From UHGV virus genome UHGV-0008299: 20,928 bases of DNA. One strand, written 5' to 3'. Origin of the DNA: a virus. Positions 2-17,649 of this stretch are shown in pieces. The position numbers and the translations under genes are program-made. Numbering within the stretch: the stretch's first letter is position 1; every line of letters begins with the position of its first letter. The notes under the pieces are model-generated. The model was given only the letters and a program-made list of their open reading frames with translations, did not search any database and was not told where the DNA came from.

Positions 2-157
2 GAAACCTCCAGCGCCTCCGGCATGGGCAATGATGCCACCGTCGAACTCTCTCCAGTTGCTGGACGAAACGTTCTCGATATCCGGGACGGAATTATCCGC
101 GACCAAACAGCACTGAGAACGCTTCAGGAATACATCAGGACGCAATGCCTTCGATGA
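2..157 (+). CDS. Rz-like i-spanin, C-terminal fragment (5' end outside window)
   Basis: Open frame from the window edge to TGA at 155-157. Translation ends ...LRTLQEYIRTQCLR, which resembles the C-terminus of lambda Rz as I recall it (...QKYINEQCR). Too short to appear in the ORF track. Confidence 0.55.
   Translation, partial: ETSSASGMGNDATVELSPVAGRNVLDIRDGIIRDQTALRTLQEYIRTQCLR
3..116 (+). CDS. Rz1-like o-spanin, C-terminal fragment embedded in +1 frame inside Rz
   Basis: Frame 3 translates KPPAPPAWAMMPPSNS..., a proline-rich motif resembling lambda Rz1 (PPPPPAWIMQPPP). Ends at TGA 114-116, inside the Rz frame, as expected for an embedded spanin pair. Confidence 0.5.
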   Translation, partial: KPPAPPAWAMMPPSNSLQLLDETFSISGTELSATKQH

Positions 158-331
158 TAGCGATAATTTTACTCATCATCCTTCACATCTGGCTCTGTGG
201 ACAGGGTGGTGATCACTTCTGGAGTGAATCCAGATTAAACATCTCATTGCTGATGCTTGATATTGAGCATCTTGCGCGCGGTAAGGGGCTGCGTTGAGAT
301 AAGAGCCAGTCATTACAAATACCAGGATTTA

Positions 332-357
332 GCCTCGCATTCGCGGGGCTTTTTATT
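332..357 (+). terminator. Rho-independent terminator candidate downstream of the lysis genes
   Basis: 7-bp GC-rich stem (gcctcgc / gcggggc, one G-U pair) with a 4-nt loop, followed by tttttatt. Confidence 0.5.
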
Positions 358-401
358 GCCATTATCAAAGCCACTCCCTACAGAGTGGCTTTGATAATGG
401 C
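358..401. repeat. Perfect 19-bp inverted repeat (hairpin) with 6-nt loop
   Basis: Arm 358-376 gccattatcaaagccactc is the exact reverse complement of arm 383-401 gagtggctttgataatggc; loop cctaca. It directly abuts the terminator T-run. Confidence 0.7.
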
Positions 402-461
402 TTATACCCTACACGGGATAGCTTAACTGATATCCCTTTTAACGGATAAACGGAGCCAACA

Positions 462-704
462 ATGGCAGAGATTATTCCCATGACTGAAGAACAGAAATTC
501 CAGTTAGAGATTTACAAGCTGGTCATGAACCAGAACGCAGCCGCAGAAGAAGCATTTCAGTTCATTGGCACTGACGAGCTGAAGCTTGAGCTATTCAAAA
601 TTCACTTCCAGTCAGGTGGCGCTAATTCAGATATCACGACCCGCACTATCGAAGCGGTGCGTAAATCGAAGGAAGCGCTAGACCTGTTTACTGCCGGAGC
701 ATAA
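462..704 (+). CDS. Hypothetical small protein upstream of terminase
   Basis: 80-aa ORF with ATG start and a cggag Shine-Dalgarno 7 nt upstream. Its stop lies 2 nt before the small terminase ATG. No recognisable motif. Confidence 0.5.
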   Translation: MAEIIPMTEEQKFQLEIYKLVMNQNAAAEEAFQFIGTDELKLELFKIHFQSGGANSDITTRTIEAVRKSKEALDLFTAGA

Positions 705-2560: not shown

Positions 2561-4759
2561 ATGGCAGAAAAAAAGATGACTGACTGGCATCGCAAGGTGC
2601 TGTGCAACTTTGATAATGCCTGGTCAGCAACGCAGGATATGCGTGAGCAGATTATTGAGGCTCAACGTTTCGTCCGGGTATCCGGCGCACAGTGGGAAGG
2701 CAGCACAAACGCTGGTTACTCATTTGATGAAGGCAGGTTTGAGCATTACCCGCGCTTTGAACTGAATAAGATTGCCCGTGAATGTGATCGCATCATTGGC
2801 GAGTATCGACAGAATCGCATCAGCGTTAAATTCAGGCCGAAGGACGACAAGGCATCGGAAGCGTTAGCCGAAAAGATGAACGGCAAATTCCGCGCTGACT
2901 ATCAGGAAACATCCGGTGGCGAAGCGTGTGATAACGCATTTGATGATGCCGTAACGGGCGGATTCGGTTGTTTCCGCATGTGTGCCGATTACGAAGATGA
3001 AATGGATCCGAGTAACGAGCAGCGCCGCATCAGCCTTCTCCCGGTTTACGACCCAGCGACATGCGTCTTCTTCGATCAGGACAGCAAGCAATATGACCGC
3101 TCTGATGCTATGTGGGCTATGGAAATGTTCTCCATGACGCCTAAAGCGTTCGAGGCTGAATACCCTGATTCCATTGCGGCAAGCCTTTCTCGTGATGACA
3201 CTGGTACTCAGTATGACTGGTCAACGCCCGATGCCATCTATGTTGGACGCTACTACGAAGTTCGCATAGAGAAGGTGAAGCTCACGGCGTGGCGCAACTC
3301 TGTTAGCGGAGAAACGGCAATCTATGATGAAGAACAGATCAAAGATATTGTTGACGAGCTAACCGATGGTGCATTCGAGCTGATCGGTGAGCGGACAGTG
3401 AAGAAACGCCGAGTTTATTGCGGTCTTCTGTCTGGCGCTGAATGGCTGGAAGAACCGAAGCGTATTCCGGGCGAACATATTCCTCTCATCCCGGTATATG
3501 GGCGTCGCTCATTTGTTGATAATCAGGAGCGAATCGAAGGCCACGCAGCAAAAGCGATGGATGCGCAGCGTCTTGAGAACCTGATGGTTTCCATGATTGC
3601 AGATAACGCTACTCAGGCTGGCGGTGATGGCATTCCTGTAGTTGATGTTGACATGATTCCTGGTCCTCTTGCCACTCATTGGGCGGAGCGCAACAAAAAT
3701 CGCCCGGCGTTCCTGCCGATGGTCAGTCTGAAAAACAAAAACGGAGATATTACTGCGCAGGCTCAGGTCAGCAGTTATACGCCTCCGACACAAATGCCTC
3801 CAGCTCTTGCCGGGCTATTGCAGTACACCGGAACGGCTATTCAGCAAATTACAGGTGCGTCGCAGCTTGAGAACATGCCGAGCAACGTCGCCACCGATAC
3901 CGTTGATAGCATCTTTAACCGGATGGATACGCAGTCCTATATCTACATGGACAACATGGCTAAATCCATGCGTCGCGCTGGCGTTGTGTGGCTTTCTATG
4001 GCGCGTGAGGTCTATGGCAGTGATACGCCGATGCGTATCGTTAATGAGGACGGCAGCGATGACGTGGCGCTGATGACTGGTGAAGTGGTTGACCGTCAGA
4101 CAGGGCAGGTTATCGCGCTTAATGACCTTTCGCAGGGCAACTATGAAGTGACTGTCGATGTCGGTCAGTCGTTCGCTACTCGCCGTGATGCAACGGTTAA
4201 GTCGTTACTTTCCATGCTGGCACTTATCCCACCAGGAACGCCGAAGCACGACCTTGTATCGTCGATGATTCTCGACAATATGGACGGCGAAGGGATGGAC
4301 GACCTTAAAGAATACAACCGCAATCAGTTGCTTCTGTCTGGAGTTATCAAGCCGAGAACGCCAGAAGAGCAGCAAATGGTTGAGCAGGCGAAACAACAAC
4401 AGGCCAGTCAGCCAGATCCGGCTATGGTTGCTGCGCAAGGTCAGCTTCTTGCTGGTCAGGCTGAATTGCAGAAAGCGCAGAACGAACAGGCAGTCATTCA
4501 GGTTAAAGCATTCCAGGCACAGACTGATGCTCAGGTTGCAGCGGCAAATGTTGTGAAAATCCTCGCATCTGCCGATAGCCAGCAGAAATCTGATATCCGC
4601 GAGGCTCTGAAACTGCTCGGACAGTTCCAGCAACAGCAAGGAGACAATGCCCGTGCTGATGCAGAGCTTGTCCTGAAAAGTCAGGCACAGGGCCATGCGC
4701 AGCGCATGGACATCAGCAGCATCCTGCAAAAATCAACTCAGCAACAACCACAGCAGTAA
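2561..4759 (+). CDS. Portal protein (P22 gp1-like)
   Basis: 732 aa immediately after the large terminase. Gln-rich helical C-terminus, as in the P22 portal barrel; size matches P22 gp1 (about 725 aa). Confidence 0.9.
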   Translation: MAEKKMTDWHRKVLCNFDNAWSATQDMREQIIEAQRFVRVSGAQWEGSTNAGYSFDEGRFEHYPRFELNKIARECDRIIGEYRQNRISVKFRPKDDKASEALAEKMNGKFRADYQETSGGEACDNAFDDAVTGGFGCFRMCADYEDEMDPSNEQRRISLLPVYDPATCVFFDQDSKQYDRSDAMWAMEMFSMTPKAFEAEYPDSIAASLSRDDTGTQYDWSTPDAIYVGRYYEVRIEKVKLTAWRNSVSGETAIYDEEQIKDIVDELTDGAFELIGERTVKKRRVYCGLLSGAEWLEEPKRIPGEHIPLIPVYGRRSFVDNQERIEGHAAKAMDAQRLENLMVSMIADNATQAGGDGIPVVDVDMIPGPLATHWAERNKNRPAFLPMVSLKNKNGDITAQAQVSSYTPPTQMPPALAGLLQYTGTAIQQITGASQLENMPSNVATDTVDSIFNRMDTQSYIYMDNMAKSMRRAGVVWLSMAREVYGSDTPMRIVNEDGSDDVALMTGEVVDRQTGQVIALNDLSQGNYEVTVDVGQSFATRRDATVKSLLSMLALIPPGTPKHDLVSSMILDNMDGEGMDDLKEYNRNQLLLSGVIKPRTPEEQQMVEQAKQQQASQPDPAMVAAQGQLLAGQAELQKAQNEQAVIQVKAFQAQTDAQVAAANVVKILASADSQQKSDIREALKLLGQFQQQQGDNARADAELVLKSQAQGHAQRMDISSILQKSTQQQPQQ

Positions 4760-5766: not shown

Positions 5767-7026
5767 ATGTCTAACCAGTTAACCAAAGACCTCGAAATCC
5801 TCTTTGAGAACGTCATTGATAGTTTTGAGGCGTCTAATGTCGTTTCCCGCGAGTGCAGCAAGTTCCGACCGGGCGACACTGAAATGCAGCGCGCTGGCGA
5901 CGTTGTTTATCGCCCTCAGGGCTACCACCTGAAAACCGTGAGCGGACTTGATCTGACTTCGGCCACTGCAAACTCACTCGTTCAGCGTCAGGTGCCTGCT
6001 CGCTTCCGCGAGCCAGAGAACGTCATCTACGAACTGGACGCAAAAGAAATGCGCGATCCGTGGCACAAAGAGCAGGCTGGCAAGGCGGCGGGTCGCCAGT
6101 TGGCGGCGTGGGTTGATAACATGATCGTCGATGAGGTGGCCGCTCGCTCCACCAACGTGGTCACCATTAAATCGGCGTCCACCGGTAACACTCTCGGCGA
6201 AGAACTCTGGAACGCATCGGCCGAAGTTGATGCAATGATGCTGTCCATTGGTGTGCCTCAGGGTGGTCAGCGCAAGGCGTTCTACAACCCGTTCAACTAC
6301 AAAGACCTGGCTAAGGAGCTTGGCTCTCGCGCATATGCGGTCGGTGCAACTCTGACAGCCTATGAGAAAGCTCAGATTCCACCGGTGGCATCCTTCGACA
6401 GTTTCCGCGTTGATTATGCTGGCGCAATGAAGGCTGGTTCAGCTACCGCTGTAACTCTCGGCGGCGCAGTAAAACACAAAGTTACCGCGATGGATTCCAA
6501 CGGCGCGCCTACCGATAACCGCCAGGGTGACATCACCGTATCCACTGCTGACGTACTGGCTGTCGGCGATGCATTCACTATCGCAGGCGTTAACAGTGTC
6601 CACATGATCAAGAAGGTGGATACAGGTAAGCCGCAGGTATTCCGCGTCCTGGCAGTAAATGGCACTACCGTTACCATCAGCCCGAAAATTCTGCCACCAG
6701 ACAACGAGGATAAGGCGTCTATTCCTTACCAGAACGTTACCGCCAATCCGGCGGAAAACGCGGCGATCACCATCCTCAACACGAAGGCTGCGGCTTCCAA
6801 CATCTTCTTCGCTGAGGGTTCTGTTGAGCTGATGTATGGCAAGTTGGCATTCCCTACCGGCCAGGGTCCGCAGGTTATGACCGCAACGACCGAGCAGGGT
6901 GCGACCATCATCATGGCTTACCAGTTCGACGCTAAATCTGGCAAAACGTGGACTCGCTTCACCACGCTGGCTGGCGCAAGCGTACTGGTCCCGGAATTCA
7001 CCGGCCTGGTACTGGCTAACCAGTAA
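5767..7026 (+). CDS. Major coat protein (P22 gp5 / Sf6 gp5 family)
   Basis: 419 aa, in the position after the scaffold gene and followed by a strong terminator. High-GC, codon-biased gene typical of a highly expressed structural protein. Confidence 0.85.
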   Translation: MSNQLTKDLEILFENVIDSFEASNVVSRECSKFRPGDTEMQRAGDVVYRPQGYHLKTVSGLDLTSATANSLVQRQVPARFREPENVIYELDAKEMRDPWHKEQAGKAAGRQLAAWVDNMIVDEVAARSTNVVTIKSASTGNTLGEELWNASAEVDAMMLSIGVPQGGQRKAFYNPFNYKDLAKELGSRAYAVGATLTAYEKAQIPPVASFDSFRVDYAGAMKAGSATAVTLGGAVKHKVTAMDSNGAPTDNRQGDITVSTADVLAVGDAFTIAGVNSVHMIKKVDTGKPQVFRVLAVNGTTVTISPKILPPDNEDKASIPYQNVTANPAENAAITILNTKAAASNIFFAEGSVELMYGKLAFPTGQGPQVMTATTEQGATIIMAYQFDAKSGKTWTRFTTLAGASVLVPEFTGLVLANQ

Positions 7027-16725: not shown

Positions 16726-17649
16726 GCAATTTTAGAAGCAGTGAACACCTCTTACGTGCCTTTCAATGGTCAGCAGATTTTAACCGCTGTGGCTGCCGGA
16801 GTGACTTATGTAGCGATGCGTCAAATTGTGGAAAACATTGGTATCGACTGGACTGGTCAATCTGTTAAGTTGCGTAAAATGAAGGACAAATTCAACTGTA
16901 GAGATATCTCTATGGTTGCTGCTGATGGCAAGTTACGTAAGCTTTTATGCATCCCGCTGAAGAAGTTAAATGGATGGCTGTTCAGCATCAACCCTGAGAA
17001 AGTTCGTGCTGACATCCGTGATAAACTGATTCAGTACCAGGAAGAATGCTTTAGCGTGCTGCATGACTACTGGACTAAAGGTCATGTAGTTAACCCACGC
17101 AAAGCTAAAAAGGCGTTGCCGGGTAAAATCACCACTGAACAGCAGGAAGCCATTAAACAACTCGTCATGAGTCGCGGTCAGTCTCTGCCAAAAGAAAAAC
17201 AGGCTAAGGCGATGATCACCATGTGGTCGTCACTGAAATCCCATTTTGGATGTTCGTACAAAGAAATCAGTGAGGAGCAGTTTACCGAAGCACTATCACT
17301 TGCAGCTCGAGTTCCACTTGAAGGTGAGTTCATTGGCAAACAAGAGAAGAAAACCAACGAGCTTTCTGCAAAAGAAGCAAACAGCCTTGTATGGTTATGG
17401 GATTATGCTAACCGCTCACAGGCATTATTCCGCGAACTGTATCCGGCATTAAAACAAATTCAATCGAACTATTCCGGCAGATGCTACGACTACGGTCATG
17501 AATTCTCGTATGTTATCGGAATGGCGAGAGACGTTTTAATCAATCACACACGCGATGTTGATATCAATGAGCCAGACGGACCAACGAATCTTTCCGCATG
17601 GATGAGACTTAAGAATAAAGAATTACCTCCTTCAGTACATAACTACTGA
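16714..17649 (+). CDS. ant: Antirepressor Ant
   Basis: The track ORF starts at TTG 16648; the first ATG is at 16714 ([21 protein letters not shown]...), with ggag at 16700-16703. Position after arc, about 310 aa, as for P22 Ant. Confidence 0.8.

Follow-up and report, generated by a model that had tools for sequence, protein, structure and literature searches.

A repeated, strand-selected hairpin between the lysis and packaging genes of temperate phages as a candidate RNase III processing signal

We analyzed a hairpin located between the lysis and packaging genes of UHGV-0008299, a P22-like phage. The whole stretch of DNA, 20,928 nucleotides (nt), or 20.9 kb, is referred to as the window. A first-pass annotation of this DNA had described a perfect inverted repeat next to a terminator and had listed several possible roles without choosing any of them. 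We found that the hairpin is a member of a family of structures that are selected on one strand, are repeated between small genes and resemble the RNase III sites of phage T7. We regard it as probable, judging from sequence comparison, that it belongs to a set of elements repeated between the cistrons of the Q-antiterminated late transcript of lambdoid and P22-like phages, and that these elements are RNase III processing signals of the type of T7 R1.1, R1 and R18.5. The features of the locus are as follows.

Up to 157: C-terminus of the Rz spanin (PF03245)
145..297, + strand: conserved 50-aa open reading frame (ORF), homologue of Sf6 gene 65 (phrog_11822, E=7e-37; annotated gene 65 in Sf6)
311..319, + strand: CATTACAAA, relic of the left (5') arm from an upstream copy of the hairpin, which is intact at the homologous place in Sf6; from the window/Sf6 alignment
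331..357, + strand: intrinsic terminator from a terminator scan; stem 331-338/343-350, loop ATTC, T-run 351-357
358..401, + strand: the hairpin, from inverted-repeat and folding analysis; arms 358-376 and 383-401, loop 377-382
402..461, + strand: conserved leader associated with the hairpin, C/A-rich, with Shine-Dalgarno GGAG at 452-455
462..704, + strand: DUF2560 gene (P22 orf80 / HK620 hkbM / Sf6 gene 67; PF10834, E=1e-43; tblastn against phages)
707-1147: small terminase (phrog_309, E=1e-67)
1144-2559: large terminase
2561-4759: P22-type portal

The 50-aa ORF overlaps the end of Rz, and a non-coding stretch of about 165 nt separates it from the DUF2560 gene. The latter is the first gene of the packaging block and begins 60 nt past the hairpin, so the placement between lysis and packaging genes, some 60 nt before the first packaging ORF, was correct in the first-pass annotation. 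The terminator has an 8-pair stem (6 G:C) and a 4-nt loop followed by TTTTATT, as expected of an intrinsic terminator; the consensus scan located it directly beside the hairpin, where a GC-rich terminator had been proposed. In phage Ayreon, this site bears the annotation 'terminator'.

The arms of the hairpin, GCCATTATCAAAGCCACTC (358-376) and GAGTGGCTTTGATAATGGC (383-401), are 19 nt long and 100% complementary, with a 6-nt spacer; coordinates and pairing are exactly those first described. No other hairpin-type inverted repeat of such size was found in the window. The next-best close-range inverted repeats are imperfect palindromes at 16893-16918 (15 nt, 87%) and 6375-6392 (13 nt, 92%). A perfect 19-bp hairpin with a loop of 3-10 nt is expected by chance about 6e-7 times per 21 kb of random sequence (an estimate made as ~21,000 positions x 8 loop sizes x 4^-19). 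The + strand of the region 300-470 folded with z = -7.75, and none of 200 shuffled sequences folded equally well.

Related copies were gathered via three conserved leaders located just 3' of the hairpin, with the arms excluded as anchors. Since the anchors lay downstream, there was no selection on arm sequence. We gathered 292 related copies, among which 107 distinct variants share one register. The lower stem has 6-7 bp, GC[C]ATTA / TAAT[G]GC, and is followed by a 2x2 internal loop, 5'-CA / 5'-GA, present in 98-99 of the 107 distinct primary variants. Above it, the upper stem has 9-10 bp, in most variants 10 in a row, and is closed by an apical loop of 3-6 nt with free sequence. When the internal-loop motif was used as the register for the remaining copies, 191 of 206 distinct variants fit. 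The window hairpin falls on this register as follows.

358-364/395-401, + strand: lower stem
365-366 and 393-394, + strand: internal-loop positions, TC (CA in the family) and GA
367-376/383-392, + strand: upper stem

The TC at 365-366 pairs with the GA at 393-394, which makes the stem continuous over 19 bp; the CA/GA internal loop is absent from the window copy itself, for which we infer the register mapping. An uninterrupted stem occurs in just three of the 134 copies with the leader type of the window, and the window version was matched at 99% or more by 20 of 2331 E. coli records. In the relatives, the right arm is found everywhere and the left arm is variable. The perfection of the stem is an atypical derived state and not a conserved feature. 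The initial argument that so long and perfect a stem is unlikely by chance agrees with the estimate above, although the perfection it emphasized is the exception in the family; the internal loop that family members normally have is of importance for the mechanism proposed below. Template-switch correction of a quasi-palindrome yields, in one step, adjacent substitutions that complement the opposite arm. The replacement of CA by TC, two adjacent changes, may have come from one such event.

Among 98 distinct hairpins aligned with MAFFT, standard pairs made up 94.6% of the pairing cells, compared to 33-49% when the partners were slid by 1-3 columns. Two-sided changes were observed at 13 of 17 pairs, with observed values reached in 0 of 500 column shuffles; the shuffle control ignores shared ancestry, and the covariation figures should not be read as probabilities. 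The case for covariation is still strong due to the count of independent pair types and the control with slid partners. Examples of compensatory changes are A:U/G:C at L1, G:C/A:U at U1 and A:U/G:C at U3, as well as G:C/C:G/A:U at U4, C:G/G:C at U5 and U:A/C:G at U9. RNAalifold produced the same two helices with an internal loop between them. Conservation with compensatory changes in related prophages, which had been suggested as a check of the first-pass annotation, is clearly confirmed by these figures.

The conservation is also strand-specific. The non-Watson-Crick cells are mostly G.U on the + strand (225, compared to 48 cells with A.C, which is the wobble of the - strand). Covariance-model scores are far higher on the + strand, for example 60.5 vs 25.1 bits; the model made of prophage hairpins only (R1) scored the window hairpin at 50.6 bits on the + strand and at 38.8 bits on the - strand. 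A family hidden Markov model found 446 copies in 302 loci (2.6 Mb), and 443 of the 444 copies in loci with defined orientation point in the same direction as the packaging (late) genes. It is very likely that the hairpin is under selection as an RNA structure of the + strand.

The conserved unit is discrete. Its left edge is the base of the hairpin, located after the stop codon of a small ORF or after a terminator; 149 of 423 copies start within 5 nt of an upstream stop codon. The element sits 25-60 nt before the next start codon. Rightward, a C/A-rich leader reaches the Shine-Dalgarno sequence of the next gene (DUF2560, the HK97-type HNH endonuclease region, and others); it is conserved up to GGATAAA, and at least four different genes follow it. 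The leader of the window contains a small hairpin of its own, GGGATA (415-420) / TATCCC (431-436) with a 10-nt loop, followed by TTTT (437-440). This small hairpin (415-440) is kept with this leader type, is weakly terminator-like and shows no covariation in the data. It is missing from the two other leader types and hence does not belong to the core unit.

The number of copies per phage varies from 1 to 4, and about half of the loci have two or more. Pairs of elements flank small genes, such as gene 66 of Sf6, orf53 of Emek, and the DUF2560 gene in 716R3 and Klebsiella phages. Positions of such copies within the loci of Sf6, 716R3 and two Klebsiella phages are given below.

463-498 and 1124-1169 in Sf6 (L002): two copies, flanking gene 66
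525-563, 1136-1177 and 1446-1488 in L142: three copies
About 1135-1177 and 1446-1488 in L140 and in L141: two copies each

Because the copies flank single small genes, such genes look like cassettes bounded by the element. In Kp4885-3, there are three copies in the stretch examined, while the whole Sf6 genome has exactly two, both between Rz and terminase. The window has a single copy plus the relic, and the gene 66 cassette of Sf6 is not present.

The element occurs in P22-like podoviruses, in HK97/HK022/mEp siphoviruses, in Stx2 phages, and in Klebsiella and Salmonella phages. Among complete E. coli genomes, 2312 of 5426 (43%) carry it, with a median of one place per carrier and a maximum of five. 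Every element locus examined in detail is phage DNA, and no annotation of the element was found in RefSeq. The copy in P22 is located 670 nt upstream of orf80; in P22 and BTP1 the pid region (~670 nt) is inserted after the element.

Several loci show rearrangements at or near the element. In KpF5 (L144, about 1140-1180) and in 14 IMG/VR copies, the right arm GGCTTCGATAATGC is kept and the left arm is replaced by unrelated sequence; these loci have a new short hairpin, GCCGC-TACCGT-GCGGC, with the recombination junction in the middle of the element. In HK97 (L136, about 1580-1665), HK022, HK446, mEpX1 and mEpX2, the hairpin and leader are followed by a DUF2560 gene cut to its first 28 codons, and this stub precedes the region of the HNH endonuclease gp74. 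The stub looks like a remnant of recombination inside DUF2560. In phage L/ST64T, orf118 (L138, 1087-1443) crosses the hairpin at 1133-1175, and the match to the DUF2560 homologue starts at 1201; the N-terminal 38 codons of orf118 are probably an over-extended ORF call.

We compared the family with T7 by means of two models, R1, and R2, which is made of seven T7 sites only. In T7, intergenic hairpins of the form CAAGGNCNNNC-loop-GNGUGGCCUU-UAUGAU precede genes 0.3, 0.5, 1, 1.1, 1.3, 4.7 and 18.5. Their coordinates, except for R1.1, are presumably those of Dunn and Studier 1983 and were checked only against the gene map and the mutual similarity of the sites. The feature table of T7 record V01146 lists no RNase III sites. 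The T7 hairpin 5861-5884 was identified as R1.1 by the features described in PMC1540722 (Pertzev and Nicholson 2006): a GCAA tetraloop, U12:G27, C13:G26, a U-C 'pair' at position 4 of the proximal box, and a UA/UG distal box. All of these agree with the T7 sequence 5861-5884.

Both the T7 sites and the family are intercistronic hairpins that lie on the transcribed strand and recur several times in a genome; both have an internal loop right under the upper stem and, on their 3' side, a U-G-A-U motif. At its top, the family stem has C:G, U:A, U.G, A:U and C:G as in R1.1, including the UA/UG distal box. The 10-bp upper stem of T7 R1.1, AAGGUCAUUC-GCAA-GAGUGGCCUU, has nearly the sequence of the family variant GGAGCCAUUC-GCC-GAGUGGCUUC, and T7 R1, UUACAGGUCAUCUGCGGGUGGCCUGAAUAGG, is close to the family variant UUACAAAGCCCAUCUACGGGUGGGCUUGAUAAUGG. 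There are also differences. The internal loop of the family is symmetric, 2x2 CA/GA, whereas T7 has a larger interruption with unequal sides; the lower stem, GC[C]ATTA/TAAT[G]GC, is highly conserved in the family and has a different sequence in T7. Unlike T7, the phages of the family are temperate, lambdoid or P22-like, and are transcribed by the host polymerase.

When R1 was run on both T7 strands (80 kb) with filters off, R18.5 and R1.1 ranked first, and five of ten matches fell on R sites, which make up ~1% of the genome. Conversely, the top match of R2 over the window was 362-402 on the + strand (23.9 bits, E=6e-4), and the next one, unrelated, had 10.4 bits. The apical identity CCAUUC...GAGUGG is not generic. 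The best match of R2 in Sf6 (L305 24784-24818, - strand) is an ordinary intrinsic terminator located in the early left operon, between ral and gene 34, with the sequence AAGGCTGCC-TGAT-GGTGGCCTT-TATTTTTG; it shows that a stem shape is common to some terminators and the RNase III stems of T7 type.

The family was further compared with the substrate rules of RNase III. Substrates typically have two helical turns, and the distance from the cut to the loop is at least 11 bp, with UA/UG as the canonical distal box (PMC1540722). The family, with 7 bp, a 2x2 loop and 10 bp, and the window copy, with 19 continuous bp, agree with the length rule of ~20 bp on the transcribed strand, which permits coaxial stacking. 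The upper stem of 10 bp plus an adjacent non-canonical pair, as in T7 R1.1, gives the required spacing. In the distal box, U8 is U.G in 143 of 191 variants and U9 is U:A in 142 of 191, the same as pairs 15:24 and 16:23 of R1.1. The U.G wobble being the majority state suggests that it is retained for a reason. In the window, U8 is C:G, like in T7 R0.5, R1.3, R4.7 and R18.5. At position 2 of the proximal box, which was mapped by homology and where the rule forbids G:C and C:G, the outcome was mixed: neither was found in the primary copies (0/107), but C:G is present in 30 of 191 variants when all copies are counted.

With respect to the place of the cut, internal loops restrict cleavage to one phosphodiester and leave a protective 3' hairpin on the upstream product, while R1.1[WC] is cut on both strands; a C:G pair beside the scissile bond lowers catalysis 7-14 fold in uR1.1 with binding unaffected (PMC1540722). 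At the family level, the CA/GA loop supplies the internal loop, or non-Watson-Crick pairing, at the target that a single-strand cut calls for. A subset of the family has C:G where the R1.1 studies found inhibition. The geometry of R1.1 would place the cut on the 3' strand of the window hairpin after T395, and the UGAU motif would place it before G393. Since the two mappings differ, we give the predicted region of RNase III cleavage on the 3' strand as 392-396.

These observations can be combined into a model. During lytic growth, the Q-modified polymerase would pass the terminator 331-357 and transcribe the hairpin. RNase III would bind the ~19-bp coaxial helix, and the CA/GA loop, located 10-11 bp below the apical loop, would restrict the cut to the 3' strand (392-396 in the window). 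The upstream message, with lysis and accessory genes, would keep a protective 3' hairpin, and the packaging message would be freed, starting a few nt before the unstructured C/A-rich leader. Such a signal could define mRNA segments where the Q-modified polymerase ignores terminators. With its loop closed, the window copy resembles R1.1[WC] and might likewise be cut on both strands; alternatively, it might be bound and cut poorly due to the C:G beside the scissile bond. The stem of the upstream terminator could take over the 3' protection in the window. As a precedent, RNase III processing of the Q-dependent late RNA of lambda is reported by Daniels et al. 1988 (cited in PMC7547250).

Several observations weigh against this interpretation. 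The G.T wobble bias is also expected from a single-stranded DNA hairpin of the + strand; RNA is the simpler reading as orientation is fixed relative to transcription. The E-values of the top R1 matches in T7 are marginal, 0.17 and 0.19, so that the argument rests on the location of the matches, and R1 gives comparable background scores, 14-18 bits, in Sf6 and the window. R2 also matches ordinary terminators with an AAGG...CCUU stem, which means that a part of the likeness to T7 is generic. The coordinates of the T7 sites apart from R1.1 were checked against gene positions and the mutual similarity of the sites, not against record annotation. C:G does occur at position 2 of the proximal box in 30 of the 191 variants; these form a subtype located for the most part after DUF2560. 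The gene that follows can do without the element, as seen from the KpF5-type loci with the right arm only and from the P22/BTP1 insertion. Finally, the nearly invariant lower stem and internal loop could equally point to another sequence-specific protein.

We considered what else could maintain such a structure. The same evidence for a + strand RNA structure would be expected if the hairpin stabilized RNA without RNase III, as an exonuclease barrier or a 5' protection setting the half-lives of the lysis and packaging segments, with cleavage elsewhere, e.g., by RNase E in the A/U-rich flank. The hairpins abut stop codons like 3' stabilisers do, and they interchange at the same position with intrinsic terminators, which also leave a 3' hairpin. 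A barrier, however, needs merely a stable stem, and the near-invariant CA/GA loop, the ATTA/TAAT lower stem and the T7-specific UA/UG features would be left unexplained; we consider this explanation unlikely. A sequence-specific phage or host RNA-binding protein, acting in an operator-like manner on the following gene, would account for a near-invariant ATTA/TAAT lower stem and CA/GA loop below a variable apical part, as well as for the location 25-60 nt before the next start codon. Yet at least four unrelated genes are found downstream, in the context of unrelated packaging and regulatory modules (P22-like, HK97-like, Stx, Klebsiella siphoviruses); no single phage protein co-occurs with the element, and the tests run gave no host candidate. 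Binding by such a protein is very unlikely as the primary role. The first-pass annotation had also mentioned a protein-binding site; taken as a DNA site, it fits poorly with the strand asymmetry.

The element could also act at the DNA level as a linker, i.e., a short homology used in cassette (moron) exchange, with the hairpin shape being secondary. Megablast matches of P22-like phages begin at window positions 350, 358-361 or 383, and some phages match the window in two pieces with extra genes between them. The copies flank variable cassettes; relative to Sf6, the window has lost the gene 66 cassette between two copies, with the breakpoint in the left arm, and the junction of the KpF5-type loci lies in mid-hairpin. 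Recombination between homologous sequences does not depend on base pairing within them, though, and here compensatory changes and strand-specific wobble are kept and the orientation is fixed relative to transcription; besides, the curated Sf6 record marks other boundary sequences and none here. We find it quite unlikely that exchange is what the hairpin is conserved for. Recombination is likely a side effect that arises, alongside the RNA function, from a conserved repeat lying where cassettes meet, and to this extent the recombination feature considered in the first-pass annotation is compatible with the data, as the breakpoints of phage homology cluster inside the hairpin. A second factor-independent terminator, or a pause hairpin backing up 331-357, is highly improbable. 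The GC-rich upper stem is indeed followed by the U-rich CUUUGAUAAU, two substitutions (GA to UU) make family members canonical terminators in several loci, and the T7-site model cross-matches terminators. But 358-401 did not appear in the terminator scan; its stem is followed by TTATACCC and not by a U-tract, the U-rich segment would be engaged in pairing by the conserved lower stem, and Q-antiterminated late transcription must continue into the packaging genes.

Of the functions originally listed, these data support the first, a late-transcript element for RNA processing or stability, and the others are weaker. The small-RNA option did not hold up, as there is neither a conserved promoter nor an Rfam match to a small RNA, and STnc560 is a chromosomal locus. 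The match to RF01407 STnc560 (241-420) had 21.3 bits against a threshold of 55; this small RNA is encoded between ydeI and ydeE in the Salmonella chromosome. Matches to miRNA families (mir-458, MIR781, others) are those of generic long hairpins. The promoter consensus scan of 1-1500 on both strands found only an unrelated weak minus-strand site at 119-92, and manual inspection found no partner hexamer at valid spacing for TTGATA/GATAAT. The known prophage small RNAs Pas, STnc100, AgvB, AsxR and Esr41 are located near Q and holin, and the Rfam models of STnc100, AgvB, AsxR and Esr41 had no match in the window. On the minus strand, a terminator was rejected, since the stem is followed by AAUAAAAAG with no U-tract. 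A pac or cos packaging site was rejected by reasoning: the terminases are unrelated, both headful and cos phages carry the element, and in HK97 it is ~800 bp from the genome end.

The terminator 331-357 had been treated as an unrelated neighbour of the hairpin. In our analysis, it looks like a degenerate earlier copy of the hairpin unit. The window and Sf6 are collinear through gene 65 into CAGT(T)CATTACAA and then diverge. In Sf6, this sequence forms the left arm of an intact upstream copy (38.8 bits with R1). After CATTACAA, the window has a 12-nt insertion, and then the terminator stem aligns with the upper stem and the 3' side of this first Sf6 copy. The terminator of the window, AGCCUCGC-AUUC-GCGGGGCUU-UUUAUUG, has as its Sf6 counterpart AGCCUAUC-UACG-GGUGGGCUU-GAUAAUGA. 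It is plausible, given ~61% identity, that the terminator is an older hairpin copy whose 3' side has mutated to a U-tract; R1 had no significant match at the window terminator.

Conversion is unmistakable at other loci, where GUCAUCA-CA-AAGGCCACC-UCCG-GGUGGCUU-UU-UUAAUG (in DNA form, GTCATCA-CA-AAGGCCACC-TCCG-GGTGGCTT-TT-TTAATG) is a complete unit with GA changed to UU. The change of GA to UU makes a U-tract directly after the upper stem, and the same change is seen on several different stems. We also observed at many loci that the terminators preceding the hairpin are often converted copies of the hairpin unit. On this reading, the finding in the window is a tandem of two units, the first of which has turned into a terminator.

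With respect to known systems, no Rfam family reached its threshold for the hairpin and none came near besides; Rfam also had no model for the T7 R1.1-R1.3 region. A literature search by sequence and topic found no description of the element, and an earlier remark in the genome papers of HK97/HK022, HK620 or Sf6 is possible. Nothing at the hairpin site is mentioned in the BTP1 record and transcriptome paper, the paper on the genome of phage L, the preprint on the Pas small RNA or the curated Sf6 record, which lists regulatory and boundary features.

The lambda sites sib, N-leader and those of late RNA are also RNase III hairpins in lambdoid transcripts, as predicted here for the element. The sib site is complete only once the antiterminated polymerase passes a terminator. 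The window offers a parallel, with a terminator directly followed by a candidate processing hairpin in an antiterminated operon. The lambda sites lie elsewhere, downstream of int (sib), upstream of N and in the late RNA, and no sequence relationship to them was seen, though none was looked for.

The boundary sequences (bsq) at mosaic junctions of lambdoid phages, including Sf6, are, like the element, short conserved sequences at module junctions with homology breakpoints, and the starts of homology matches cluster at window positions 350-383. Unlike them, the element is structured, strand-specific and covarying, and it is not among the bsq listed for Sf6. A further parallel is with repetitive extragenic palindromic (REP) sequences and bacterial interspersed mosaic elements (BIME), which are repeated imperfect palindromes after stop codons as well, able to stabilise upstream mRNA. 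REP elements have hundreds of chromosomal copies, whereas the present element has a median of one place per carrier genome and at most five, in phage DNA at every place examined in detail. From the sequence relationships described, the element is best filed as a putative widespread new family of phage RNase III processing hairpins.

If RNase III cuts here, the late transcript of ~20 kb would not be one message and would be segmented at hairpins as in T7. This would offer a mechanism by which the lysis, accessory and packaging genes are expressed at different levels while antitermination disables terminators. Since the element is present in ~43% of complete E. coli genomes, including Stx phages, and is not annotated, a covariance model of it would help the annotation of prophages and eliminate spuriously extended ORFs, such as orf118 of ST64T/L. 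The position at cassette boundaries and the easy conversion to terminators bear on moron acquisition.

A broader idea, which we put forward as tentative and rather doubtful, is that these hairpins form a punctuation system common to virulent T7-like and temperate lambdoid phages, combining transcript cutting, terminator switching and homology for cassette exchange. In that case, RNase III-type hairpins would delimit every small accessory gene as a cassette, and the antiterminated late transcript would be cut into separately stable messages. Two substitutions (GA to UU) would turn a hairpin into an intrinsic terminator or back, and expression of the cassette would change between the late-operon and the lysogen type. 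The RNA element itself would also drive moron mosaicism, i.e., gain, loss and swap of cassettes.

Two minor observations concern the genes downstream of the hairpin. The second-best match of R1 in the window is located at 2585-2621 on the + strand (18.3 bits, E=0.016), TGGCATCGCAAGGTGCTGTGCAACTTTGATAATGCC, within codons 1-20 of the portal gene. It has GGCAT...TTTGATAATGCC in common with the family and a poor upper stem, and it is probably a chance match. Homologues of the small terminase of the window (in ON470589, from 1375 onward) are labelled 'HNH homing endonuclease' in vB_EcoP-611R6, 683R2 and phiv205-1, a label that is probably a misannotation.

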